DNA of 11,887 nt from a virus. Taxonomy: Duplodnaviria > Heunggongvirae > Uroviricota > Caudoviricetes. Made by a program: the position numbers and the translations under genes. Positions 1 to 11,887 of the stretch are shown one piece after another. The notes under the pieces were generated by a model. That model worked only from the letters and a program-made list of their open reading frames with translations, had not been told where the DNA came from and made no database searches. Numbering within the stretch: the first letter of the stretch is position 1; the number at the start of each line of letters is the position of its first letter. The DNA is taken from positions 1 through 11,887 of IMG/VR virus record IMGVR_UViG_2541047953_000003; one strand, given 5' to 3'.

Positions 1-336
1 ATGGCAGAATCATTTGCAACAGGTTCCGATCATCAGGTTATAAACGAGCTCAACGGGGAAAGACTGAGAGAACCTAACGATGTTTTTAAACGTTTAGGTC
101 GAGCAATAAGATATAATTTTCAAGTGGACGATGCAAAATTTAGACGCGATAATGTAAAAGAAATAATTTCTAATTTATTCGCTAACAAAGTTGACGTTGA
201 CCATCCTGAAAATAAATACAAAGACTTTAAGGATCTCGAAGATAACGTTGAAAAAAGACTTCAAAATCGCCAGGCGAAATATCAAAATGAAATTAATCAA
301 CTATCTGCGCCAGGTGTTAATTTTGATGATATTTAA
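1..336 (+). CDS. 3' portion of a conserved hypothetical protein, probably truncated at the window edge (111 codons to the stop at 334..336)
   Basis: Open frame runs from position 1 to the stop and is convergent with mlaA, sharing a hairpin terminator. In E. coli K-12 the gene upstream of mlaA is yfdF, so this may be its C-terminus, but I do not recognise the sequence itself. Confidence 0.45.
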   Translation: MAESFATGSDHQVINELNGERLREPNDVFKRLGRAIRYNFQVDDAKFRRDNVKEIISNLFANKVDVDHPENKYKDFKDLEDNVEKRLQNRQAKYQNEINQLSAPGVNFDDI

Positions 337-480
337 AATTATTTTTCCAGTTTTTTGATTTTTCAACGCCTGAATATCGGAAATAGTCAGTGACGAACAT
401 CAGTATTTTTACATCATTACGTCCGGGTCATTGTCGGTTTATCTCCTTTTACTTGTGGTAATTGAGGGATAACAACAAAA

Positions 481-508
481 AAGGTGAGTTTTGCGACTCA
501 CCTTTTTT
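481..508. terminator. Bidirectional intrinsic terminator between the convergent upstream ORF and mlaA
   Basis: 9-bp stem AAGGTGAGT (481..489) / ACTCACCTT (496..504) with loop TTTGCG. It is flanked by an A-run upstream and a T-run downstream, so each strand sees hairpin plus U-tract. Confidence 0.7.
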
Positions 509-517
509 ATTTGTTTC

Positions 518-1273
518 TTATTCAGAATCAATATCTTTTAAATCATCCTGAATCGCTTGTGCGTTCGGATTTTCCTGCGGTTTGAGTTCGCCGCCATTAG
601 CGATGAAATCATGACGCTGGAAGTACGCTTCGCGCACCATAATATAAGGATCGGACGACTGACGCAGCAGACCATCGGAATCCAACAACTGCGCACGAGT
701 TTCTATCCCTTCAAGCGTCCATTTACCCACAGACATCGGCCAGGTCAGCCAGGAAAGAACCGGGTAAAGACCATCCGCCATATCACCACCGTCATCACGC
801 AGCGTGAAGCTACCGTAGAACGGTAACTGGACGTAAGGCCCATAACCCACGCCATAATGACCAAGCGTACTACCGAAGCGGTGAGGTTCAGTCCGTTGCA
901 GTTTCGGGTTCGCCATCCCTGCAACATCAATAAAACCGCCCATCCCCAAAATGGTGTTCAGGAAAAAGCGGGTAAAGTGGACCATCCCCTGATAAGGGTC
1001 GCCCTGCAAGAAGTAGTTAACCATCACCGCAGGTTCTTCAAGGTTGCCAGTAAAGTTGCTCAAACCGTTACGCGCCGGTTGCGGAACATAATCACGCCAG
1101 GCGACAGCGACCGGTCGAACAATATACGGGTCTAATACATTGAAGTTGAAGTTGTACATGGTGCGGTTGAACCCTTCTAACGGGTCAGAACGCCCTTGCT
1201 GATCTGTACCGGAACTCGCACACCCCACCAGAAGCGTAGTTCCCAGAGCAAGCGCCGACAGGCGAAGCTTCAT
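518..1273 (-). CDS. mlaA: MlaA (VacJ) outer-membrane lipoprotein, phospholipid asymmetry maintenance
   Basis: 251-aa ORF with N-terminal signal peptide and lipobox (LLVGC ASS). The full-length sequence matches MlaA/VacJ as I remember it, and the mlaA-yfdC-argW synteny is that of E. coli. Confidence 0.9.
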   Translation of the reverse strand: MKLRLSALALGTTLLVGCASSGTDQQGRSDPLEGFNRTMYNFNFNVLDPYIVRPVAVAWRDYVPQPARNGLSNFTGNLEEPAVMVNYFLQGDPYQGMVHFTRFFLNTILGMGGFIDVAGMANPKLQRTEPHRFGSTLGHYGVGYGPYVQLPFYGSFTLRDDGGDMADGLYPVLSWLTWPMSVGKWTLEGIETRAQLLDSDGLLRQSSDPYIMVREAYFQRHDFIANGGELKPQENPNAQAIQDDLKDIDSE

Positions 1274-1566
1274 AAATGTCTCCCTGTTTTTTTATGGCTT
1301 ATGCAGTTTGCCATCCATGACGGAACGATACCGTATCCGCCTGTTTAGGTGTGGGCGATTGTAACAGCACGTCAACTGATGTCCAGACGCCCTGATTTGC
1401 TGATTTGATCATAGCCTGGTAATCGCCGCCCTGTAGGCTACTTGATTCTATAGAAACAGAAAAAGGCAAACGCAGCCTTTTCTACATTTTCAGAGTAACT
1501 CCCGTCAGTTGCGAGCAAAAAAGCCGCTACGCTTTAGCTATACGTGCTAATTCAAGAGAAGAGACC

Positions 1567-2499
1567 ATGGACAACGACAAAATTGATCAACACAGCGACG
1601 AAATTGAAGTTGAGAGCGAAGAAAAAGAGCGCGGCAAAAAAATAGAAATAGATGAAGACCGACTCCCCTCCCGGGCGATGGCAATTCATGAGCATATCCG
1701 CCAGGATGGTGAAAAAGAGCTGGAACGCGACGCAATGGCGCTACTGTGGTCAGCCATTGCGGCGGGTCTGTCGATGGGCGCTTCGTTACTGGCAAAAGGG
1801 ATATTTCATGTCGAACTGGAAGGTGTGCCGGGCAGCTTCTTGCTGGAGAATCTCGGTTATACCTTTGGTTTTATTATCGTCATTATGGCCCGCCAGCAAT
1901 TATTTACCGAAAATACCGTGACTGCGGTACTACCCGTCATGCAAAAACCGACAATGAGCAACGTCGGCTTACTTATACGGTTATGGGGCGTCGTGCTGCT
2001 GGGTAATATTCTCGGGACAGGTATTGCGGCGTGGGCATTTGAATATATGCCTATCTTCAATGAAGAAACTCGCGATGCATTTGTCAAAATCGGCATGGAT
2101 GTGATGAAGAACACCCCCAGCGAGATGTTTGCCAACGCGATCATTTCCGGCTGGCTGATCGCCACTATGGTTTGGATGTTTCCTGCAGCGGGTGCGGCAA
2201 AGATTGTGGTGATTATATTGATGACCTGGCTTATTGCCCTGGGTGACACCACCCATATCGTGGTCGGTTCTGTTGAAATCCTCTATCTGGTGTTTAACGG
2301 TACGCTGCACTGGAGCGATTTCATCTGGCCCTTCGCACTACCTACTTTAGCGGGGAACATCTGCGGCGGCACCTTTATCTTCGCGTTAATGAGTCATGCA
2401 CAGATTCGTAACGACATGAGCAATAAGCGTAAAGCAGAAGCACGCCAAAAAGCAGAACGTGCGGAAAACATTAAGAAAAATTATAAAAACCCGGCATAA
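1567..2499 (+). CDS. yfdC: Formate/nitrite transporter (FNT) family inner-membrane protein YfdC
   Basis: 310-aa ORF with multiple hydrophobic helices after an acidic N-terminus, preceded by a purine-rich RBS (GAGAAGAGA). Size and position between mlaA and argW match yfdC. Confidence 0.85.
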   Translation: MDNDKIDQHSDEIEVESEEKERGKKIEIDEDRLPSRAMAIHEHIRQDGEKELERDAMALLWSAIAAGLSMGASLLAKGIFHVELEGVPGSFLLENLGYTFGFIIVIMARQQLFTENTVTAVLPVMQKPTMSNVGLLIRLWGVVLLGNILGTGIAAWAFEYMPIFNEETRDAFVKIGMDVMKNTPSEMFANAIISGWLIATMVWMFPAAGAAKIVVIILMTWLIALGDTTHIVVGSVEILYLVFNGTLHWSDFIWPFALPTLAGNICGGTFIFALMSHAQIRNDMSNKRKAEARQKAERAENIKKNYKNPA

Positions 2500-2557
2500 A
2501 TGGCGAGGGTTTAAGCAATCGAGCGGCAGCGTACTTACCCCGCACTCCATTAGCGGG

Positions 2558-2563
2558 TATACT
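2558..2563 (+). promoter_or_regulatory. Candidate -10 element (TATACT) of the argW tRNA promoter
   Basis: TATACT sits 11 nt upstream of the mature tRNA 5' end and is followed by a GC-rich discriminator-like stretch (GCCGC). The -35 is weak, so the call is tentative. Confidence 0.3.
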
Positions 2564-2574
2564 CATGCCGCATT

Positions 2575-2649
2575 GTCCTCTTAGTTAAATGGATATAACG
2601 AGCCCCTCCTAAGGGCTAATTGCAGGTTCGATTCCTGCAGGGGACACCA
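2575..2649 (+). tRNA. argW: tRNA-Arg, anticodon CCU
   Basis: 75-nt sequence folding as a cloverleaf: acceptor stem GTCCTCT/AGGGGAC, anticodon loop CTCCTAA (anticodon CCT), T-loop GGTTCGATTCC, encoded 3' CCA. Followed directly by an integrase gene, the classic argW island arrangement. Confidence 0.93.
2620..2635 (+). repeat. 16-bp segment of argW (TTGCAGGTTCGATTCC) that recurs exactly at 11652..11667; candidate att core, attL copy
   Basis: Exact 16/16 direct repeat found by eye. Its position inside the tRNA T-arm next to a P4-type integrase is typical of a tRNA-targeting att core. Confidence 0.6.
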
Positions 2650-2739
2650 TTTATCAGTTCGCTCCCATCCGTACCAGTCCGCAAAATCCCCTGAACATCA
2701 AGCCTTCCGTATATTCACAGTTCGTAATGGTTCGCGTCA

Positions 2740-2810
2740 GATCGTTGACAGCCACACTCCATGACGGGTAAAAAGTGGATAAAATAATTTTACCCACCGG
2801 ATTTTTACCC
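2740..2810 (+). promoter_or_regulatory. Candidate intS promoter and recombinase/RDF binding region (attL arm)
   Basis: TTGACA at 2745..2750; TAAAAT at 2780..2785; inverted repeat GGGTAAAA (2765..2772) / TTTTACCC (2789..2796), with TTTTACCC repeated again at 2803..2810 abutting the ATG. GTTCG motifs recur at 2626, 2657, 2719 and 2730. Confidence 0.35.
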
Positions 2811-3968
2811 ATGCTCACCGTTAAGCAGATTGAAGCAGCAAAGCCGAAAGAAAAACCATACCGCCTACTCGATGGTAATGGTCTGTACCTTTATGTCCCT
2901 GTATCCGGAAAAAAGGTCTGGCAGCTTCGCTACAAGATTGACGGTAAGGAGAAAATCCTGACCGTAGGAAAATATCCGCTAATGACTTTGCAGGAGGCAA
3001 GGGATAAGGCATGGACTGCGAGGAAAGACATCTCGGTTGGCATCGATCCGGTAAAGGCGAAAAAGGCTTCGTCTAACAACAATTCATTTAGTGCGATTTA
3101 CAAGGAATGGTACGAGCACAAGAAGCAAGTCTGGTCAGTAGGCTATGCAACTGAACTTGCCAAAATGTTTGATGACGACATTTTACCCATCATCGGCGGT
3201 CTTGAGATTCAGGATATTGAGCCGATGCAACTGCTGGAAGTAATCCGCAGATTTGAAGATCGCGGTGCAATGGAGCGAGCCAACAAAGCCCGCAGAAGAT
3301 GCGGCGAGGTTTTCCGTTACGCTATTGTCACCGGAAGGGCTAAATATAACCCAGCACCTGACCTTGCTGACGCCATGAAGGGATACCGCAAGAAGAACTT
3401 CCCGTTTCTTCCTGCAGACCAGATCCCGGCATTCAATAAAGCACTAGCAACATTTTCAGGAAGTATCGTATCGCTCATTGCCACCAAGGTTTTACGCTAT
3501 ACAGCCCTAAGAACGAAAGAGCTTCGTTCCATGCAATGGAAGAACGTCGATTTTGAAAACAGGATTATCACCATCGACGCCAATGTGATGAAGGGACGCA
3601 AAATTCATGTGGTTCCTATGTCAGACCAGGTGGTTGAACTTCTCACTACGCTAAGCTCAATCACTAAACCAGTGTCAGAGTTTGTTTTTGCCGGACGCAA
3701 CGATAAGAAGAAGCCAATCTGCGAGAACGCGGTGCTACTTGTGATCAAACAAATCGGCTATGAGGGTCTGGAAAGCGGTCACGGATTCAGGCATGAATTC
3801 AGTACGATTATGAACGAGCACGAATGGCCTGCTGACGCTATTGAGGTGCAACTGGCACATGCCAACGGCGGATCTGTGCGTGGGATTTACAACCATGCTC
3901 AGTATCTCGATAAGCGCAGAGAAATGATGCTGTGGTGGGCGGACTGGCTGGACGAAAAGACACAGTAA
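2811..3968 (+). CDS. intS: Tyrosine recombinase, P4-type prophage integrase (IntS-like, 385 aa)
   Basis: ORF immediately downstream of argW. The C-terminal region has the tyrosine recombinase signature (HGFRHEF ... VQLAHANGG ... RGIYNHAQY). Start chosen at MLTVKQ (2811); an in-frame ATG at 2775 would add 12 residues. Confidence 0.85.
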   Translation: MLTVKQIEAAKPKEKPYRLLDGNGLYLYVPVSGKKVWQLRYKIDGKEKILTVGKYPLMTLQEARDKAWTARKDISVGIDPVKAKKASSNNNSFSAIYKEWYEHKKQVWSVGYATELAKMFDDDILPIIGGLEIQDIEPMQLLEVIRRFEDRGAMERANKARRRCGEVFRYAIVTGRAKYNPAPDLADAMKGYRKKNFPFLPADQIPAFNKALATFSGSIVSLIATKVLRYTALRTKELRSMQWKNVDFENRIITIDANVMKGRKIHVVPMSDQVVELLTTLSSITKPVSEFVFAGRNDKKKPICENAVLLVIKQIGYEGLESGHGFRHEFSTIMNEHEWPADAIEVQLAHANGGSVRGIYNHAQYLDKRREMMLWWADWLDEKTQ

Positions 3969-3976
3969 TCAAAAGC

Positions 3977-4000
3977 GGCAGGCCACATAAAAAGCCTGCC
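3977..4000. terminator. Hairpin between convergent intS and the UmuD'-like gene
   Basis: Stem GGCAGGC (3977..3983) / GCCTGCC (3994..4000) with a 10-nt A-rich loop. The U-tract is weak on both strands. Confidence 0.4.
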
Positions 4001-4318
4001 TTATACCGCTACGCTGTCACTTCTCACATCGATGATGGTGTGTGTCACCACGCCGGCGACAGTGATATCATCCAGGGCCTCGCCTTCAATCGCTTCGCCG
4101 TCTTCGGTTATCAGCGACCGCCCTCTCAACGTGGCAAGTTCCGTCCCGCCGCCGTGCTGGATCAGAACCTGACTACCCTGCCTTGGTTTCAGGGAGATAT
4201 CCAACACAACGTAACCGCCAGACCGCTCGAAAACTAGCGTGTTTGGGCCTACATTGCAGATCGCGTTAACAGACAGACGCTGCTCAACGTAGTCAGACGC
4301 CGGAGACGGGAACGCCAT
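4001..4318 (-). CDS. UmuD'-like protein (S24 LexA/UmuD fold), genetically pre-truncated and lacking the GDSM serine motif
   Basis: N-terminus MAFPSPASDYVEQR matches the UmuD segment GFPSPAADYVEQR that immediately follows the RecA-mediated cleavage site. The C-terminal half aligns loosely with the UmuD beta-core, but no GDSM-type serine motif is present (RSGGY instead). Start codon overlaps the stop of the upstream small gene (TGATG). An in-frame ATG at 4351 is the alternative start. Confidence 0.7.
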   Translation of the reverse strand: MAFPSPASDYVEQRLSVNAICNVGPNTLVFERSGGYVVLDISLKPRQGSQVLIQHGGGTELATLRGRSLITEDGEAIEGEALDDITVAGVVTHTIIDVRSDSVAV

Positions 4319-4557
4319 CAGATGACCCTCCCCATGTTGGCCATCATCCACAGCCTGTTTTCGCTATGCTCTGCCGTTTTGTCGACAAAGTACGTCTGCT
4401 CTCTTGATATCCAGTTGTTAGCCTCCTCTTCTGAAAAATGGATACCCCTCCGCTGTAGTTCGGAGATGAAAGAATCAGTGTAAAGGTATTGATAACCTTT
4501 AGGATTTATAGAAATGGAGGCTCTGAAAGCCTCCGCGATGGCGTTACGTCTGATCAT
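4318..4557 (-). CDS. Small hypothetical protein (79 aa from ATG; 83 aa if the TTG at 4569 is used), first gene of the SOS-box operon
   Basis: ORF directly downstream of the LexA box and translationally coupled to the UmuD'-like gene. I recognise no family. The arrangement recalls the small impC gene preceding impA in plasmid impCAB operons; this is an analogy by position only. Confidence 0.5.
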   Translation of the reverse strand: MIRRNAIAEAFRASISINPKGYQYLYTDSFISELQRRGIHFSEEEANNWISREQTYFVDKTAEHSENRLWMMANMGRVI

Positions 4558-4575
4558 GTCTCTTACCAAACAAAA

Positions 4576-4591
4576 CTGTATTTATATACAG
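4576..4591 (-). promoter_or_regulatory. LexA (SOS) box CTGTATTTATATACAG overlapping a candidate promoter
   Basis: Matches the E. coli consensus CTGT-N8-ACAG with an AT-rich centre. It lies 19 bp upstream of the small-gene ATG. On the transcribed strand a -35 TTGACT (complement of 4612..4617) sits about 17-18 bp upstream of a -10 that overlaps the box. Confidence 0.7.
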
Positions 4592-4622
4592 TATTGTTTG
4601 CGTTAATCAACAGTCAATCATT

Positions 4623-6722
4623 TTATTGAATAAAAGTGTAAGGAGAAGCGATGGTATATTGTGCATTAGCCCCTATGGGAGTATCGAAAATCCACACCTC
4701 ACTCAAACCATCTTTTGTAATTGACGCGTTAGGTCCCCCATGGCTGCATCCATAAAGATATAACTTTGCTTTACCAGTTAAGTCGGATCCTTGCCCAGCA
4801 GTAAAGCAGGCGCCACCGATAAAGTCTGCCCTTGAACTATCATGCGAGTAACACCCAAAGTTAGCTGTAACCGTGCCATCATGAACATCGTGAACTACAC
4901 GGCCAAACGTTCCGTAGTATTCACCGTTCAAACGTATCCCTACAGTTCCGTCATGAGCGGTAGAGCCGTTATTATTTGGTAAATTATCAAAACCACTCCA
5001 ACGGCCAGTACAACCAATTTCGATAAACCACGGCTTTATCCCAAGACCATTCTGATCGGCATGATAGTTAAATGCGTCCTGCATCCCGTATTGAGCAGTG
5101 CAATTCTGCATAATACAGTTTACACCTAAAGAGTTAAAGGCATTCCTTGTCACAGATAAATCAAATATACAATTTTTTGCATATAAGTATCCTTTTTTAC
5201 CCGCCGTTTGAACCTCAGCCTGAAACCCCCTAAAGCTGTCCTTAAAGTGAATATTTTCAATATAAACTTTGCTATTATCCTGAATTCTTCCATTAGTCAA
5301 TTGAAGAACAAGCCGTGAATTAGAATCAGGAGCTCGCCCGTCAAAAAGATGAATATACAGCGTATTCCCTGTTTTATAGGATGAGCCAGGTGTTGAAACG
5401 CAGTCGGCAAGGCTGGCTACGGGAGTTAGAACCTGAGCATGTCCATAACTATCAAGATTGGCATAGTCAACAACGTTTAGAACAAGATTACCTGTGTACT
5501 GGTATACGCCAGCGCTTCCCTGTGCCGCCCACGTTGCAGCCGGTTCAACAGTGCTCAGAATTGGTGTTCCATCGTATCCGATGAAATCGAGCTCGCGGTC
5601 AACTACGCTAACATTCCATGTAAAATCACGGGTATATTCCATCCCGCCTTTTATCATGATTGTCCTTGCTGCCGGGGTTTTCTCAATGGCATATTTTATA
5701 CGCTGGAATGGTTTAGCCTGCGTGCCGTCTCCAGTCGTATCACTACCGTTAGTGCAGTCCACATAATATGTTGTCCCGCTGGATGCCTTCTTCACAGCCA
5801 CATCATAATCAGTCCAATATCTAAGCGTGCCATCAGAACGAAGTGCGCAGTAAATTGGAATCTGCTCTTCTATTCTTCTCAGCTCACCTGGAAACCATGG
5901 TATTGATGATGGGCATCCGGCAATTCCAAAAGCACTTTTATTTGCATTGCCAATTAATTCTATAAGAGTCCCTGATTTAATATGAGCAATAAGTAGCGAG
6001 CCGTCAAATGGATATCTGTCACGCGCTTCATATGTTCCGTCTGATTTAACAACAATACATATTGTGCTTGATGTTGTTGTGACATTCTGATTTTGACCAA
6101 TAACACTAACGCCATTAAAAGAATAAAGACCGCCAGAAAAGCTTATAGTTGATGATCCTGCAACTGGTTTCCATTGAGGAGATATAATCACGCCTCCTAA
6201 CGATCTGTATAATCTATCAAGAGCTGTATAAACGGTGCTGTCCCTATAGCCAACCAAGGTGGCTCCATTTGACTCTCCAAGCGCTGAGAAATCTACGCTT
6301 ATTGAGCTTATTGCATCGTATACATTGGTGTCTTTAAATCCTACTAATTTCGCGCCATCTGGCTGTGAAAGATCATATCTTAGCTGATCTGGTGAATATC
6401 TTAAGACATTGGAGAAGTAAAATTGCTGTGCTCCATATGCATCATACACAGCCATGCTATGGCTTTGAACTGTCACGAATTTGGCAATCTGTCCGTTATA
6501 TACAGGATAACCAGCGGCGTTAATGATGATTGGCTGCGAAACAGGAACGTGAGAACCATCCTCATTCTCCACATAAACCTGAATCTGGTTTTCAGGATTT
6601 ACCGGGTCAGTGTCAATTTTACCGATATAAATTTTACCATTGGCAACCGCTTTAAAAGAACGCGCCATAGTGAAGAGTTGCGAAGGCATGCTTACTACAA
6701 CATTGGCTGTAATGTCTGTCAT
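4623..6722 (-). CDS. Phage tailspike protein (P22 gp9-type head-binding domain plus divergent receptor-binding region)
   Basis: 699-aa ORF. The first ~110 residues ([11 protein letters not shown]...[23 protein letters not shown]...) match the conserved N-terminal domain of P22-like tailspikes as remembered. The rest differs from P22 gp9 and contains a beta-helix-type start motif ([15 protein letters not shown]...TIMIKGG). RBS GGAG upstream. Confidence 0.85.
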
Positions 6723-6779
6723 TTAATTTGCTCCAGATAGAAGGAAACGCCGCAGCGTGGCTACGGCAATGCGTCATTG

Positions 6780-6794
6780 AGACCACAGTGGTCT
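6780..6794. promoter_or_regulatory. Candidate Mnt operator: perfect 7-1-7 palindrome AGACCACAGTGGTCT
   Basis: Perfect palindrome between divergent mnt and tailspike, immediately upstream of a candidate mnt promoter (-35 TTGTGG 6797..6802, -10 TATGAT 6820..6825). Resembles the P22 mnt operator half-site as I recall it. A second small palindrome CAATGCGTCATTG lies at 6766..6778. Confidence 0.5.
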
Positions 6795-6857
6795 TATTGT
6801 GGATATAACCAGTAGATCATATGATGCCGATCCACTTACAAAAGTGAGGCATCAAGA

Positions 6858-7109
6858 ATGGGAAGAGATGACCCGCAATTTAATCTGCGGCTACCTTACG
6901 AATTAAAGGAAAAACTAAAACAGCGAGCCAAATCCAATGGCCGCTCTCTTAATTCAGAATTAGTTCAGATAGTGACTGATGCTGTATCAAAGCCATCCAA
7001 AATTTCAGGCTATCGAGACGATGCGGAACGCATCGCTGATGAGCAGTCTGAACTTGTTAAGAAGATGGTGTTTGATACGCTGAAGGATTTGTACAAAAAA
7101 CCCACCTGA
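6858..7109 (+). CDS. mnt: Mnt-type repressor (Arc/MetJ ribbon-helix-helix family)
   Basis: 83-aa ORF with strong similarity throughout to P22 Mnt as remembered (RDDP.FN.R.P...EKLK.RA..NGRS.NSEL.QIV.DA.SKPS...GYR.DAER.ADEQSELVKKMVFDTLKDLYKK). RBS GTGAGG 8 nt upstream. Confidence 0.85.
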   Translation: MGRDDPQFNLRLPYELKEKLKQRAKSNGRSLNSELVQIVTDAVSKPSKISGYRDDAERIADEQSELVKKMVFDTLKDLYKKPT

Positions 7110-7122
7110 TGGTGGGTTCCAT
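7101..7122. terminator. Intrinsic terminator between convergent mnt and the lipoprotein gene
   Basis: Stem CCCACC (7101..7106) / GGTGGG (7111..7116) with loop TGAT containing the mnt stop codon. On the - strand the hairpin is followed by TTTTTTG, making it strong for the lipoprotein gene; the + strand U-tract is weaker. Confidence 0.7.
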
Positions 7123-7125
7123 TTA

Positions 7126-7545
7126 TTAGTCTTGCTTTGTGGACGGTATAAGGGATGCATTTGCCTCTTTAGGCTTCAAGGTATACATCCCACCATTAAA
7201 TGGATCTACAGCAAGCCAACCAATTAACCCACCAAACACAAGGTTTCCACCAATATACCAACCATTAGCATTGGCTTTTATTGGCATGGTAACTGGTTCG
7301 TACCCATCCTTCTCCATAGTGATCTGGTAGCTCTTTTTGCCAAAATAACTACCATCTGACTTGGCAAGAGTTACTCCTTGCGGGGTCTTACCTTGCGCAA
7401 CAATCACGCCTGATTCGTCTTTTACCTTAAAGCTCGCACCGGAAGGATTGCTGTTCACTTGCACAAGCTGTGTTTCGTCACCAACAATAGTTGCGCACCC
7501 AGATAACATGATAACGCCAGCAACGACGCCGATAATCCTCTTCAT
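7126..7545 (-). CDS. Putative prophage lipoprotein (139 aa) with a PEGA-like beta region and a glycine-rich hydrophobic C-terminus
   Basis: Signal peptide with lipobox (VIMLSGC). The middle region has a PEGA-like pattern (VQVNSNPSGASFKV...GKTPQGVTL...GYEPV), and the C-terminus has a Gly-zipper-like hydrophobic segment (YIGGNLVFGGLIGWLAV). Has its own terminator. The domain call is from pattern only. Confidence 0.6.
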   Translation of the reverse strand: MKRIIGVVAGVIMLSGCATIVGDETQLVQVNSNPSGASFKVKDESGVIVAQGKTPQGVTLAKSDGSYFGKKSYQITMEKDGYEPVTMPIKANANGWYIGGNLVFGGLIGWLAVDPFNGGMYTLKPKEANASLIPSTKQD

Positions 7546-7616
7546 ATTACTTTCCGTTTTGTTAGAATCAGAAAGATCTTAATAATAAAAAGTATTTTCG
7601 TGAAGATATTGTCGAT

Positions 7617-7631
7617 TGAGTTAATAACTCA
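7617..7631. promoter_or_regulatory. Perfect 7-1-7 palindrome TGAGTTAATAACTCA in the divergent lipoprotein intergenic region
   Basis: Perfect palindrome about 50 bp upstream of the + strand lipoprotein start, inside an AT-rich divergent promoter region (7546..7679). Operator-like; the binding protein is unknown. Confidence 0.35.
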
Positions 7632-7679
7632 TTTACACCCAACAGTGCCATGATGGCAAAGATAAGGAGAGTTAATCAT

Positions 7680-8165
7680 ATGAAAAAATCACTGTTAATT
7701 ATCCCGCTTCTGCTGGCAGGGTGTGCAAAGATTAGCGACTATCAGGCAAGTTGCGAACAACGCTATCCAAAGCTTAGCGATATGGCTAATTGCCTTGATG
7801 CTAGCGTGAAGAGCGACTCACGCATGGCATCAGCACCAACACCTAAGTTATATGTCCTTGCTGCGAAGATGCTCGGGCAAGGTGTCGATGATGGCAAGAT
7901 AAGTGACGCGCAGGCAAGACTTGAGCTTCAGAATCTTTATGTTCAATTACAAAGCCAAGAACAAGCCCAACAAATAGCGCAAAGCCAAGCATTCCAGCAG
8001 GCTTTATTGAATTATCAGGCTGTAAACACTATGCAAGCGATCGAGCAAAAAGCGAGACAGCCTGTTATAACTCAACCATATCCAACACGAGTTGACACTT
8101 ACACAAACTGCAATTCAGGGTTTGGAAATACAGTCACATGCAACAGTAGCAGTAACATCAGATAA
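7680..8165 (+). CDS. Putative prophage lipoprotein (161 aa) with a Gln-rich, probably coiled-coil region
   Basis: Start taken at MKKSLLIIPLLLAGC (lipobox LAGC) with RBS AAGGAGA 9 nt upstream. The in-frame ATG at 7650 is less likely. The mature part contains a Q-rich heptad-like stretch (LELQNLYVQLQSQEQAQQIAQSQAFQQALLNYQ). I recognise no family. Confidence 0.6.
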   Translation: MKKSLLIIPLLLAGCAKISDYQASCEQRYPKLSDMANCLDASVKSDSRMASAPTPKLYVLAAKMLGQGVDDGKISDAQARLELQNLYVQLQSQEQAQQIAQSQAFQQALLNYQAVNTMQAIEQKARQPVITQPYPTRVDTYTNCNSGFGNTVTCNSSSNIR

Positions 8166-8255
8166 CAATCAGCAAAGGTATCGCCTATGCAGAGGGATAC
8201 GATAAACCTCGCGTTCTACATATTTGGTTTTTGCACGTTCATGGTGTTTGAAAAG

Positions 8256-10649
8256 CTATTCTGACAACGCATCAGACTTAGCCCCCTGCATCATAGCGTT
8301 AATTGCCTTTTGTGCCTGCTGCATGGCTTTCTCAAACGCTGTTGAACCGCGTGGGGTGTTTGCCATTCGGAGCATTGCATTTCTGAATGGCTCGCTCTCA
8401 TAGGCGCGAGTAAGAAGTCCGTAGCTTACTGCTGCGCCAGTTGTCGCCGGGTTCATTGCCGTCCCATACCCAATTATGAACGGGATAGTTTGCTGCCCTG
8501 TGGGTGTTGTTACTGCCGCTTTTGCAGCCTGCTGCGTGGATTGCAGGTAGTTTTTTAATCCTTTCAGATAAGCAGCGTCCTGCCCCTTAAATGTGATGCC
8601 AGTCTGTTTTTGCAGGATGTTAAGCTGCCGAAGGAACTGGTCAGGGGATCCGCCAGATTTCTCCATCGCCTTTCCAATGATGCCATTGCGCATTTGCGCC
8701 CTGCCAACACGACCAACTGAGTTATACAGCGTCTTAATTTCCGATTTGTTCTTGCTGAATAGCATGTTGTTGACAACTTCCGGTGTCAGGTCGCCTTTCA
8801 TGAGAACATTCTTCAGCCTGGTATTCTTTAGTTTCGCCGCTTCGTCAGCGTAGACGGCATTGGCCTGCTGATATTTACGGAGAGTATCGTTGCCAAGATT
8901 CTGACCAATGGCACCATTGATATCGTCTGTCATCGCCTTGTAAACGCGCTGAATGGCAGCATCGGAACGGTTTGGCAACACTGGTCGTTCCCCCTTCACG
9001 TCCATTCTGAACTGGCTGCGCAGATCGCTTAATTGCTTCAAATCCAGATTTACCGGACCATCAGGACCAGCATTGCGAACAAGCTCATCACGATAGGACT
9101 GAAGTTTTGAAATAGTCTCGTTATCGGCGACCTTACCAAGCTTCTGCAGATTAGATATTTCTGTATCAATCTGCTGAATTGCTCGCGCAGGATGAATGTT
9201 TACTCCAGCCATAGCATTCTGAACCTGCTCCAGTCGATTACCGGCGGCACGACGAATTCCTGATGTTTTCGCTTTAAGGCTGTCAATAACAACCGCTGGA
9301 TCATACTCACCGAATTTATCGGCAAATCTCTGCACCAACTGGCTTCTCGCTTCCTGTTGCGTTGCTCTCATTCCGCTTGTGCCAGCCAGGGGGATATTTT
9401 CTGCTGTAGTCTGCGCCATTTTCCCGACGCGGGAAGTAGGCTGTAACAGGTCTGTGGTGTGCAGAGGAACTCCTTCACGCTCTGCAAACCTGATAGCCTG
9501 TTGAGCTTCTGGTGCTATCGAACCACGAACACCACGATAAGCAGCACCTAATCCACGTCCGGCAGCGTTAATAGCACCGCCAGCCAGCACACCAACGCCT
9601 AAATCGGTGGCGAGTGCTTCCGCATCATCTTTCGCACTGTTTGCAGCAAGTGATCCAACTGCGTTTTCTGCTAGAAGACGAGTTGCACCCTGAGCAATTC
9701 GACCAGCAAGTGTTGGTGCCTGTGTTGCCGCTCTCTCAACGCCAGCAGGAGTGAGGTAAGGCAATGCTTCAGCAAATACCCTTCCCTCTGTCGTTTGTGG
9801 AGTCAGCGCGCCTTGCTGAAGGCCAAAGTCCTGCTCTAATCCCTGCGTTGTTACTCGTGGTGCTGGTTGATATGTACCATCGCCAATGCCGAGTTTACCT
9901 CCAGCCCAAGCCGCCGCGCTTGTTACAGCATCAGTGAGTTCAGCAGGTATGTTCGCTACGTTGATTCCTGCCTGTAGTAAGCCGCGCCCGGTTTCAGCAA
10001 GTCCATTACCAAGGTCAGACATTATTCCGCCTTGCTGCTGAACAGGTTTCGGTGCGACAGAACTTACGGGTTGAGGTGGCTGCTGACTGGCTGCCTGCTG
10101 CTCAATCTGAGCAAATGGATTATTTGGGTCTGACTGCACGCCTGATGCCGATACTTGTTCGGATGACTGTGCTTCCAGTTGTGCAAACGGGTTGTTAGGG
10201 TCTTGCTGAGGATGTACCTTTGCAGAGGTGGCGCGCTGTTCGACTGTTGAGTCTGTCACCGGGTCACCCGCCCATTGAGCAAAGCGATCATCAACGTAAC
10301 CGCGGCCTTCAGGTCCTGGCGTATATTCACCACGCTTTGCCTTCATAACGTTGCCGGGACCGTCGTGATAAGCCTGAAGAGCGTCACGCCAGTTACCAAA
10401 CTGCTGGTACATCTTTGCCAGATAGCGCGCGCCAGCGTCAGCCTGATATTCGGGGTTTTGCATTTGCTCATCGGTATAACCCATATCACGCCATGTCCCA
10501 GGCATGACCTGAGTCAATCCTACAGCCCCGGCGGAGCTTACTGCGGCAGGGTTGTAAGAAGACTCCTTGGCACCCAGTGCAGTCATCAACCCTTCTGGCA
10601 CACCGTAACGTGCGCCAGCCTGCTCTAACAAATCACGGTAATTAGCCAT
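8256..10649 (-). CDS. Phage ejection (internal virion) protein with an N-terminal lytic transglycosylase (SLT) domain
   Basis: 797-aa ORF. The N-terminus carries family-1 lytic transglycosylase motifs (ALGAKESSYNP with catalytic Glu; AVGLTQVMPGTW; AGARYL). It is followed by a tandem peptide repeat (DPNNPFAQLE / DPNNPFAQIE) and a long Ala/Gly/Gln-rich body. Its position upstream of the immI-like region and tailspike corresponds to the last ejection gene of P22-like phages. Confidence 0.75.
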   Translation of the reverse strand: MANYRDLLEQAGARYGVPEGLMTALGAKESSYNPAAVSSAGAVGLTQVMPGTWRDMGYTDEQMQNPEYQADAGARYLAKMYQQFGNWRDALQAYHDGPGNVMKAKRGEYTPGPEGRGYVDDRFAQWAGDPVTDSTVEQRATSAKVHPQQDPNNPFAQLEAQSSEQVSASGVQSDPNNPFAQIEQQAASQQPPQPVSSVAPKPVQQQGGIMSDLGNGLAETGRGLLQAGINVANIPAELTDAVTSAAAWAGGKLGIGDGTYQPAPRVTTQGLEQDFGLQQGALTPQTTEGRVFAEALPYLTPAGVERAATQAPTLAGRIAQGATRLLAENAVGSLAANSAKDDAEALATDLGVGVLAGGAINAAGRGLGAAYRGVRGSIAPEAQQAIRFAEREGVPLHTTDLLQPTSRVGKMAQTTAENIPLAGTSGMRATQQEARSQLVQRFADKFGEYDPAVVIDSLKAKTSGIRRAAGNRLEQVQNAMAGVNIHPARAIQQIDTEISNLQKLGKVADNETISKLQSYRDELVRNAGPDGPVNLDLKQLSDLRSQFRMDVKGERPVLPNRSDAAIQRVYKAMTDDINGAIGQNLGNDTLRKYQQANAVYADEAAKLKNTRLKNVLMKGDLTPEVVNNMLFSKNKSEIKTLYNSVGRVGRAQMRNGIIGKAMEKSGGSPDQFLRQLNILQKQTGITFKGQDAAYLKGLKNYLQSTQQAAKAAVTTPTGQQTIPFIIGYGTAMNPATTGAAVSYGLLTRAYESEPFRNAMLRMANTPRGSTAFEKAMQQAQKAINAMMQGAKSDALSE

Positions 10650-10811
10650 TTACTGCCCCAAAGATGGAAGATATCCGTAGCGATTAATGAAGTCGATTGA
10701 CAGCTCGGGGTGCTGCTTCAGGTAATGGTCATGTATGAAGACGGTGAGATGTGGTCTGCAATGTGGAATGGCAATCGCTGGGATGATGGCACCGAATATC
10801 CGGATCCGCAC
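10650..10811 (-). pseudogene. Possible 3' remnant of the upstream ejection-protein gene (no start codon); marks the deletion junction
   Basis: The - strand frame ending at TAA (complement of 10650..10652), directly abutting the ATG of the 797-aa gene (TAAATG), is open for only 53 codons and contains no Met. It overlaps a + strand small ORF (10725..10868), so one of the two is not real. Confidence 0.3.
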
Positions 10812-10864
10812 TCAGTTACGCACTGGCGTGAAATGCCAGCAGCGCCGAAACAGGAGGTGAAGTC

Positions 10865-11077
10865 GTGAGCAAGCACATCATCAAATATGACTATCGAGAG
10901 GGAGTTAAACTTGCAAAGCATGAAATAGAAACGTGGTGCGGACATGCGCCACAATTTTCAGACTGGTTGTTTCAGGATGCTCAGCACGCGCTGTTGAGCA
11001 TTGAGCAGGGAACGCTGCTTGTTCCTTGCAAGAATTGTCTGGCAGCAATCATCAAAACGGCGCAGGAGGTGAAGTGA
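10865..11077 (+). CDS. Small hypothetical protein (70 aa, GTG start), possible Cys/His metal-binding motif
   Basis: Strong SD (CAGGAGGTGAAGT) 8 nt upstream of the GTG. Contains CGH ... CKNC. Its stop overlaps the start of the next gene (TGATG). Confidence 0.5.
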   Translation: MSKHIIKYDYREGVKLAKHEIETWCGHAPQFSDWLFQDAQHALLSIEQGTLLVPCKNCLAAIIKTAQEVK

Positions 11078-11361
11078 TGGACTCCTTCGCGAAATATACG
11101 ATCATTGACTGGATAGCATTCCTTCAGGTTTTGCTCATCTGGTTTTATATGGCTTACAGGAGTGGACAGTGGATTGTCAGTGTAGCCTGTAGCAAGGGAT
11201 GGCGTTGGTGGAACAGAAAGAATAAAAAAGCACTGGCATTGGATTCGTTTTACGAAGCATTCAATCTTAACAGCCTTCAGCCTGGTTCTGTCATTGTAGT
11301 CACCACTCAAAGCGGCATGACGATACAAATTCACAAGCCAAAGGAGGAAGGTCGTGGCTAA
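11077..11361 (+). CDS. Small hypothetical membrane protein (94 aa)
   Basis: Start at MDSFAKY, preceded by the same 13-nt CAGGAGGTGAAGT element. One N-terminal hydrophobic helix (IIDWIAFLQVLLIWFYMAY). The longer ORF from 11026 is less likely. Confidence 0.5.
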   Translation: MDSFAKYTIIDWIAFLQVLLIWFYMAYRSGQWIVSVACSKGWRWWNRKNKKALALDSFYEAFNLNSLQPGSVIVVTTQSGMTIQIHKPKEEGRG

Positions 11362-11423
11362 CCTGCAACTTGCCGTCAAAGGTGAATAACAATCCTCGCA
11401 TTCACTGGGATTTCTTTTATCTG

Positions 11424-11450
11424 AACTCGCTACGGCGAGTTTTGTTTTAT
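11424..11450 (+). terminator. Candidate hairpin terminator after the membrane-protein gene
   Basis: Stem AACTCGC / GCGAGTT with loop TACG, followed by TTTTGTTTTAT. Confidence 0.4.
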
Positions 11451-11461
11451 GGAGATGATAA

Positions 11462-11629
11462 ATGCACTTCCGAGTCACAGGTGAATGGAATGGAGAGCCA
11501 TTCGACAGGGTTATCGAAGCCGAGAACATCAGCGACTGCTATGACCACTGGATGCTGTGGGCGCAGATAGCACATGCAGACGTAACCAATATTCGAATTG
11601 AAGAACTGAAAGAACACCAAGCCGCCTGA
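11462..11629 (+). CDS. Small hypothetical protein (55 aa), prophage right-arm gene
   Basis: ATG preceded by GGAG with 7-nt spacing; ORF MHFRVTGEWNGEPFDRVIEAENISDCYDHWMLWAQIAHADVTNIRIEELKEHQAA, followed directly by a strong terminator. It is below the ORF-track size cutoff. It may correspond to the small ypdJ-type ORF next to torI in K-12, but I do not recognise the sequence. Confidence 0.45.
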   Translation: MHFRVTGEWNGEPFDRVIEAENISDCYDHWMLWAQIAHADVTNIRIEELKEHQAA

Positions 11630-11641
11630 TGGCGGTTTTTT
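11621..11641 (+). terminator. Rho-independent terminator
   Basis: Stem CCGCC (11622..11626) / GGCGG (11631..11635) with loop TGAT containing the stop codon, followed by TTTTTTATT. Confidence 0.75.
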
Positions 11642-11651
11642 ATTGCCTGAT

Positions 11652-11667
11652 TTGCAGGTTCGATTCC
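11652..11667 (+). repeat. Second exact copy of the 16-bp argW segment TTGCAGGTTCGATTCC; candidate att core (attR or internal junction)
   Basis: 16/16 identity with 2620..2635. It lies between a terminator and the RBS of the excisionase gene. The sequence downstream of the repeat is not tRNA-like. Confidence 0.55.
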
Positions 11668-11686
11668 CTATTCGGAGATAGCACTC

Positions 11687-11887
11687 ATGCAACACGAACT
11701 ACAGCCTGATTCACTGGTTGATTTGAAATTCATCATGGCCGATACTGGCTTCGGTAAAACCTTCATCTACGACCGGATTAAGTCCGGCGACCTGCCAAAA
11801 GCCAAAGTTATCCACGGGCGAGCAAGATGGTTATATCGTGACCATTGTGAATTCAAAAATAAGCTCTTAAGCCGCGCCAATGGGTAA
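11687..11887 (+). CDS. torI: Excisionase / recombination directionality factor (Xis/AlpA winged-helix family), TorI-like
   Basis: 66-aa ORF with the AlpA/Xis-type pattern (FIMADTGFGKTFIYDRIKSGDLPKAKVIHGRARWLYRD); RBS GGAG 9 nt upstream. Size and position at the far end of an argW prophage from intS match KplE1 TorI as I recall it. Confidence 0.65.
   Translation: MQHELQPDSLVDLKFIMADTGFGKTFIYDRIKSGDLPKAKVIHGRARWLYRDHCEFKNKLLSRANG

Follow-up and report, generated by a model that had tools for sequence, protein, structure and literature searches.

The 11,887-nt stretch of DNA analyzed here (positions 1 to 11,887 of IMG/VR virus record IMGVR_UViG_2541047953_000003, hereafter called the window) carries a prophage island inserted at the tRNA gene argW of Escherichia coli. 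Our reading is that the island is a cryptic prophage, namely, a P22-like phage of the Sf6/HK620 type that integrated at argW and was later reduced by one internal deletion, and we put the probability of this reading at roughly 85%. In outline, a Lederbergvirus of the Sf6/HK620 type, ~39 to 40 kb long, would have entered the 3′ end of argW by means of an IntS integrase and attachment (att) sites like those of KplE1 (CPS-53) of E. coli K-12, and a single internal deletion of ~30 kb would have followed, fusing the 3′ ends of a gp20-type gene and a DUF551/EaA-type gene at a 6-bp microhomology. The deletion would have removed gp7, gp14, the needle, head, portal, terminase, lysis, late control, and replication genes, together with the immunity region and the bulk of the early-left operon, and it would have spared attL, intS, a moron with an SOS box, the tailspike gene, mnt and its operator, two lipoprotein genes, a gene for a gp16 with an SLT domain, the two gene stubs, three early-left genes, torI, and attR. 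The figure of ~30 kb follows from the genome sizes of related phages (38.7 to 40.4 kb) and the ~9.3 kb retained.

The two ends of the island form a recombination module of the KplE1 type, made up of the following features.

Left 2.6 kb of the window: ordinary E. coli chromosome (yfdF 3′ end, mlaA, yfdC, and argW)
2575-2649, plus strand: argW, tRNA-Arg(CCT), the integration target (found with ARAGORN)
2635-2650: attL core CTGCAGGGGACACCAT, left boundary of the island, an exact match to the KplE1 core given in PMC2951348
2651-2810: attL arm with the intS promoter region, the function of which in KplE1 is described in PMC2951348
2811-3968, plus strand: intS, tyrosine integrase of the KplE1/Sf6 type (Pfam Arm-DNA-bind_3, Phage_int_M, and Phage_integrase)
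11687-11887, plus strand: torI, recombination directionality factor (RDF); the last base of the window is the end of the torI stop codon

The 16-nt core CTGCAGGGGACACCAT is present in a single copy in the window and overlaps the 3′ end of argW. Homology with phages Sf6 and IME10 starts exactly at 2635, and it is here, at the att core, that the island begins, rather than at 2620 as an initial annotation of this DNA had proposed. The proposal in that annotation that intS and a torI-like RDF resembling those of K-12 KplE1/CPS-53 bracket the island was confirmed: IntS is identical to K-12 IntS at 381 of 385 residues (98.4% identity to Sf6 Int), and TorI is identical to both K-12 TorI and Sf6 gp18 at all 66 residues. 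Over the 176 positions of the attL core and arm together (2635-2810), there are 7 differences from K-12 and 6 from the matching side of the Sf6 attP. The other end of the island is provided by a contig from independent data (L028, described below), in which a second copy of the core, attR, lies 74 nt past torI and is followed by dsdC-dsdX-dsdA. Its attR segment (arm plus core, 89 nt) has 2 differences in 89 positions from K-12 and Sf6. With the attR end taken from this contig, the island measures 9,342 bp from core to core.

IntS reads away from attL, and the TorI-type RDF sits at the opposite end of the prophage, an arrangement that has been described for the KplE1-type module (PMC2951348, PMC8787464). 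In KplE1, the core and arm sites are bound by IntS, which also represses the promoter of its own gene, located in attL. TorI directs excision, and the element excises in vivo even though it is defective; Sf6, HK620, CUS-3, and prophages of E. coli share the conserved module (PMC2951348). Kapi1 is another P22-like phage that integrates at argW (PMC8787464). Because the proteins are the same and the sites nearly so, the element described here is probably excisable through IntS and TorI, as K-12 KplE1 is. The variability of the argW-dsdCXA island is reportedly the subject, by its title, of a 2006 study by Moritz and Welch that is cited in PMC8787464.

The point at which the two parts of the former prophage meet is marked by two truncated genes, beyond which the early-left genes run up to torI.

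10650-10726, minus strand: 3′ stub of a gp20-type ejection gene, 77 nt (the last 25 codons and the stop codon)
10721-10726: deletion junction GGTAAT, a microhomology common to both parental sequences in a three-way alignment
10727-10868, plus strand: 3′ remnant (last ~150 nt) of a DUF551/EaA-type early-left gene (PF04448 DUF551)
10865-11077, plus strand: early-left gene, 70 amino acids (aa) (phrog_4090)
11077-11361, plus strand: early-left gene, 94 aa, DUF4752 (PF15944, E = 3e-36)
11462-11629, plus strand: early-left gene, 55 aa (phrog_676), with a terminator-like hairpin after it at 11619-11638

The gp20 stub matches the end of gene 20 of IME10 at 97% identity and, at 100% identity, a gene of E. 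coli E2863 annotated as a "phage DNA ejection protein." The DUF551 remnant is 96.6% identical to the end of EaA of phage Gally and 99.5% identical to a DUF551 gene of FORC_041, which has the same series of genes (70 aa, DUF4752, 55 aa) adjoining torI. The homology ranges of the two sides overlap at 10717-10726: the gp20 side ends at 10726, and the early-left side begins at 10717. A 52-codon open reading frame (ORF) that spans the junction matches positions 26 to 68 only of the DUF551 profile. It had been proposed that a gene truncated around 10650-10864 marks a deletion junction. The junction is real, but it consists of two converging 3′ stubs joined at 10721-10726. Three other ORFs, 3932-4237 (plus strand), 10650-10811 (minus strand), and 10981-11529 (minus strand), were rejected as spurious; they have no family match, and they either cross the junction or overlap genes with stronger support.

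When the ejection protein encoded by the island was looked up by exact protein match, the identical junction was found in contig L028 (Logan ERR4556436), which is reported in five samples. This contig is 100% identical to positions 3256 to 11887 of the window (8,632 nt), junction included, and so proves the existence of the junction in independent data.

Undeleted counterparts of the left side of the junction are also available. In one genome (GCA_036609135.1, L023), the sequence at argW is colinear with positions 1 to 10726 of the window at 99.2% identity and without gaps. Past the position equivalent to 10726, this genome has a full gp20 gene of 443 aa, followed by gp7, gp14, the needle gene, and gp10. 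A full P22-like prophage at another site, bioA-ybhB (L025), differs from the window by 8 mismatches in the 6,842 nt from 3885 to 10726 (99.88% identity). The virion genes lost from the island are present beyond 10726 in both of these prophages and in a third (L026). In the island itself, we found none of the complete virion set (terminase, portal, scaffold, coat, and gp4, gp10, and gp26), and gp7 is deleted. What the island represents is thus a fragment of a member of the P22-like family and not a functional member. We infer that it can no longer produce virions or lyse the cell and would be non-lytic and non-infectious, although intS, mnt, the lipoprotein genes and, on DNA damage, the LexA-controlled cassette may still be expressed.

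The deletion appears to be recent. Because divergence from the full prophages is so small, the intact ORFs for the tailspike and the ejection protein need no selection to account for them and would simply reflect the youth of the deletion.

A comparison of argW loci across strains, suggested by the initial annotation, yielded not only the undeleted prophage in L023 but also independent remnants at the same site. In SCZE5/XH993 (L001), a truncated SLT-gp16 gene is joined to a fragment of a gene annotated as "regulator"; in strain 5735 (L010), a truncated gp14/DUF2824 gene is joined to a truncated ead/Ea22 gene; and in GPEC87-32-644 (L011), a truncated SLT-gp16 gene is joined to an early gene. 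All three resemble the island in having the intS/torI bracket, the tailspike/ejection end, and torI-proximal early genes and in having lost the center. They differ from it in their independent breakpoints and in their morons and tailspikes. IS1 or IS3 insertions are present in two of the three. This sample of remnants is biased toward compact loci, as the search joins close-lying pieces only, and it gives no basis for reading a nonrandom clustering of deletion end points in the ejection genes into it.

Several points weigh against a single deletion in one Sf6-type prophage as the history of the island. The left chromosomal flank was matched in all 5,426 complete E. coli genomes searched, but a coverage of 80% of the window at a single place was reached in none of them, and the junction was found in none; the variant that bears it is therefore rare. 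Both attR and dsdC lie outside the window, which extends no further than the torI stop codon, and the size of the deletion is derived from the genomes of related phages. Furthermore, the comparison with L023 covers the left side (1-10726), so that the parent may have had other early-left genes, and the history may have involved two steps or recombination with another phage.

The second of these histories deserves to be weighed in its own right. An incoming Sf6-type phage might have recombined with an older remnant at argW that supplied the torI-proximal genes, or, more generally, the island might descend from two prophages or phages. It is consistent with such an origin that the best matches differ by side (L023, L025, and IME10 on the left; FORC_041 and the early-left genes of Gally on the right), that identity to IME10 is 92% over 10849-11349, compared with 97% on the left side, and that mosaicism is extensive in lambdoid phages. 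An early-left region of mosaic makeup is normal in a single phage, however, and both sides are oriented and ordered as they would be in one Sf6-type prophage. Moreover, the junction lies within two coding sequences at a microhomology of 6 bp, as is typical of illegitimate deletion, not of homologous exchange, and we regard a two-phage origin as improbable. We are even less inclined to attribute the junction to an assembly artifact, in which two ends of a complete prophage would have been connected by mistake. Assemblers can be misled by short repeats, and the junction is in no complete E. coli genome, but a repeat would have to be far longer than 6 bp to collapse an assembly, and the independently assembled L028 (reported in five samples, with one similar place besides) agrees with the window at 100% identity over 8,632 nt and continues into dsdCXA. 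We consider the chance of an artifact to be negligible.

A different kind of explanation is that the island is a selected, domesticated module, kept for regulation by TorI, for Mnt, for exclusion by the lipoproteins, for the SOS cassette, or as a reservoir of tailspike and ejection genes for incoming phages. Every long ORF is intact, at least four other remnants at argW keep the same two ends, a promoter-like site, a LexA box, and a terminator belong to the cassette itself, and a host role of TorI is known from annotation (see also PMC3509656). Yet the 8 mismatches in 6,842 nt relative to full prophages explain the intact ORFs without selection, the sample of remnants is biased by the joining of close-lying pieces only, and the absence of the junction from the complete genomes gives no sign of spread. 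Domestication thus seems to us about as unlikely as a two-phage origin, and a single internal deletion in an Sf6-type prophage remains the reading that we prefer.

Between the moron and the junction, the island retains a stretch of tailspike, immI-type, and ejection genes.

4623-6722, minus strand: tailspike, 699 aa, intact (PF09008 Head_binding, residues 1 to 113, E = 4e-65)
6748-6794: immI control region, with a terminator-like hairpin at 6748-6768 (minus strand) and a palindrome resembling the Mnt operator, AGACCACAGTGGTCT, at 6780-6794
6858-7109, plus strand: mnt repressor gene, 83 aa (Pfam Arc, PF03869; Repressor_Mnt, PF11423)
7126-7545, minus strand: predicted lipoprotein, 139 aa, lipobox MLSGC, in the sieA slot (phrog_6823, E = 4e-86; weak PEGA match)
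7680-8165, plus strand: predicted lipoprotein, 161 aa, lipobox LLAGC (phrog_6067, E = 2e-109); the ORF could also start at 7650
8256-10649, minus strand: ejection (DNA transfer) protein, 797 aa, intact, with an N-terminal SLT lytic transglycosylase domain (PF01464) and an Sf6-type gp16 body

The N terminus of the tailspike is 88% identical to Sf6 gp14 and 74% identical to P22 gp9, with Protein Data Bank (PDB) matches to both N-terminal domains. Its receptor-binding part (4623-6302) has no close phage relative: the best match of the C-terminal 559 aa is a tail protein of Klebsiella phage Henu1 (53% identity), followed by two jumbo coliphages (49%). The same 699-aa tailspike and the moron recur, identical, in P22-like prophages at three places in the chromosome (argW, bioA-ybhB, and one further site, in L021; loci L018 to L025), and in strain D7 the block from mnt to the lipoprotein genes is paired with another tailspike. 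Such recurrence of the modules of the window in other combinations is the usual lambdoid mosaicism. Relatives also carry mobile insertions: one E. coli prophage has an HNH_3 gene between mnt and the tailspike gene (L026, 9061-9426).

The Mnt protein of the island is 76% identical to P22 Mnt. When the palindrome AGACCACAGTGGTCT was compared with the annotated P22 mnt operator, AGGTCCACGGTGGACCT, the flank TATTGTG was found to be common to both. Alongside the 76% identity of the proteins, the half-site of AGACCACAGTGGTCT is not the same as that of the P22 operator (GGTCCACGGTGGACC), which suggests a pair of Mnt and operator with a specificity different from that of P22. Both arc and ant are absent from the immI-type region of the island. 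Without them, mnt is directly divergent from the tailspike gene, and the hairpin lies between the operator and the start of the tailspike gene.

The two lipoprotein genes fill the slot between gene 16 and mnt that is occupied by sieA in P22. They are also found in phages Gally and 720R6, and their phrogs are of unknown function; the product of 7680-8165 is annotated at 161 aa in related prophages as well. The pair are candidate superinfection-exclusion proteins.

The ejection protein is 96.8% identical to Sf6 gp13 over residues 208 to 797 and 35% identical to P22 gp16, and a match to PF26808 (Phage_P22_gp16) is precomputed for an identical protein. Its N-terminal ~200 aa, which contain the SLT domain, are unlike Sf6 gp13, placing a mosaic boundary near 10037. 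Many E. coli and phage matches stop at 9932-10037, indicating a recombination boundary inside the ejection gene. A gene of this Sf6 type was found in 336 of the 5,426 complete E. coli genomes, in 260 of them at a coverage of at least 80%.

The moron adjoining intS (3977-4617, minus strand) is a complete unit, composed of a promoter-like site, a LexA box, two genes, and a hairpin.

4574-4617, minus strand: promoter-like site TTGACT-16 nt-AATACT, overlapped by the LexA box TACTGTATATAAATACAGTT at 4574-4593
4318-4557, minus strand: partner gene, 79 aa, overlapping the UmuD′-like gene by 1 nt (phrog_3893, E = 1e-37)
4001-4318, minus strand: UmuD′-like protein, 105 aa (phrog_3469, E = 1e-43)
3977-4000, minus strand: hairpin with a T-run, resembling a terminator, at the end of the moron operon (terminator scan)

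The box TACTGTATATAAATACAGTT is the sole exact CTGT-N8-ACAG in the window and, by our own count, matches 18 of the 20 positions of the LexA consensus. The 105-aa protein starts exactly at the N terminus of mature UmuD′ (MAFPSPASDYVEQR...) and has the arm FPSPAxDYVEQR, with a PDB match to UmuD′ over the N-terminal arm. A Tyr (GGYV) takes the place of UmuD Ser60 (GDSM), and, in a manual alignment, there is no Lys at the equivalent of Lys97; the protein thus lacks the Ser-Lys dyad as well as the cleavable N-terminal extension of UmuD and the S24 LexA-like peptidases. Against the NCBIfam HumD model it scored 42 bits, far under the 120-bit cutoff. Its AlphaFold2 (AF2) model has a beta fold and a disordered arm and matches UmuD′, LexA, and lambda cI C-terminal domains with a probability of ~1 and template modeling (TM) scores of 0.5 to 0.6 but with weak E values of at least 0.018.

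The AF2 model of the 79-aa partner has a predicted local distance difference test (pLDDT) score of 72 and the order helix-strand-helix-helix-strand-strand, followed by an invariant C-terminal tail that is not modeled. The protein matched no family of known function, no PDB sequence, and no fold significantly (best E = 0.18); in topology alone, the model is winged-helix-like. A homologue, P0185, carries a C-terminal fusion to a resolvase-type HTH_7 segment (124 aa), probably a local rearrangement beside a tail-fiber invertase, and some sources name members of the 79-aa family "putative invertase."

The gene pair, with the same 1-nt overlap, ends lambdoid-tailed Klebsiella prophages (L012 and L014 to L016), and a LexA box (TACTGTATATAAAAACAGTA) lies upstream of the Klebsiella cassette copies in otherwise unrelated upstream sequence. 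In one Klebsiella genome (L013, 4200-5684), a gene for an RVT_1 reverse transcriptase has been inserted just upstream of the cassette, and there is no LexA box within 400 nt. PADLOC defense models run on the small ORFs gave no match, and we found nothing on the UmuD′-like cassette in the literature.

Taken together, these features would support a role that is induced in the SOS response and tied to RecA/UmuD. A bolder proposal, which we put forward tentatively and consider doubtful as a whole, is that the cassette is an undescribed SOS-inducible phage unit that moves between P22-like prophages of E. coli and lambdoid-tailed prophages of Klebsiella. It would encode a dead, pretruncated mimic of UmuD′ and a winged-helix-like partner that together would modulate RecA, UmuD, Pol V, or the LexA-like repressor of another prophage during DNA damage, and its retention might be one reason why remnants of this kind persist.

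Overall, the island is an ordinary case of well-known prophage decay at a well-known integration hot spot, and its importance beyond annotation is small. It is nevertheless a clean example of a tRNA-linked att site with interchangeable cargo and of a P22-like prophage cut down to its two ends by one microhomology-mediated deletion, with the deleted and the parent-like forms both in public data. That one att site carries alternative cargo modules, as the initial annotation stated, was borne out but had already been published (PMC2951348, PMC8787464). The intact tailspike and ejection genes could pass to superinfecting relatives by recombination. The LexA-controlled UmuD′-like cassette is the only element of the island with potential for discovery.

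Comparison with K-12 shows how the same site can hold different remnants. K-12 KplE1/CPS-53 and the island have in common the attL core and arm, IntS, TorI, and the location between yfdC-argW and dsdC, and both are remnants of ~10 kb without immunity, lysis, or head genes. The interior had been described as unlike the K-12 cargo, and it is: blastn matches to the K-12 argW-dsdC locus are confined to 1-3959 and 11637-11887, which makes 3960-11636 non-K-12 cargo. Where K-12 has yfdGHI, tail-fiber fragments, and yfdK-yfdT, the window carries tailspike, immI, and ejection genes of the P22 type, and yfdGHI (gtr-like), the tfaS/yfdK tail-fiber fragments, and yfdL to yfdT had no blastn match in 3960-11636. 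The K-12-type interior is present at a coverage of at least 80% in 362 of the 5,426 complete genomes. Identity with CPS-53 throughout was rejected on the strength of this interior, and a tail module from outside the P22-like phages was rejected on the strength of the matches to the P22-type head-binding domain, gp16, and Mnt; either result would have spoken against the initial annotation, which had described the locus as a differently decayed P22-like prophage. That description holds, in that the best phage matches are all to Lederbergvirus (IME10, Gally, Sf6, Dewey, and vB_EcoP-720R6) and only the IntS/TorI/att module is common to CPS-53.

Sf6 and its relatives IME10, Gally, Dewey, and HK620 resemble the island in the att core, the integrase, the RDF, and the position of attP between int and xis, as well as in the gp16 body, the head-binding type of the tailspike, and the order gp20-gp16-tailspike-conversion/moron slot-int. 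Sf6 is without mnt and the two lipoprotein genes, whereas Gally, 720R6, and IME10 have them, as the island does. Relative to Sf6, the island is missing ~30 kb, has an SLT domain added at the N terminus of gp16 and another tailspike receptor-binding domain, and carries the LexA-controlled UmuD′-like cassette where Sf6 has oac.

P22 itself has sieA where the island has the lipoprotein genes, arc and ant where the island has nothing, and gtrABC where the island has the SOS cassette. The initial annotation had seen in the interior a contiguous slice of a late region in the P22 order. For the vegetative genes this is correct, since the annotated P22 order, 20-16-sieA-orf59a-mnt-arc-ant-9-gtrCBA-attP-int, equals the order gp20′-gp16-(sieA slot)-mnt-tailspike-moron-int of the island. 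In relation to att, however, the order is that of Sf6/HK620. IntS and TorI gave no BLASTP match to P22 Int and Xis, and the P22 attP lies between gtr and int, outside the int-xis pair, with xis beside int. In the island, att lies between int and xis, as it also does in Sf6, HK620, Kapi1, and KplE1, such that int and xis come to stand at opposite ends of the prophage.

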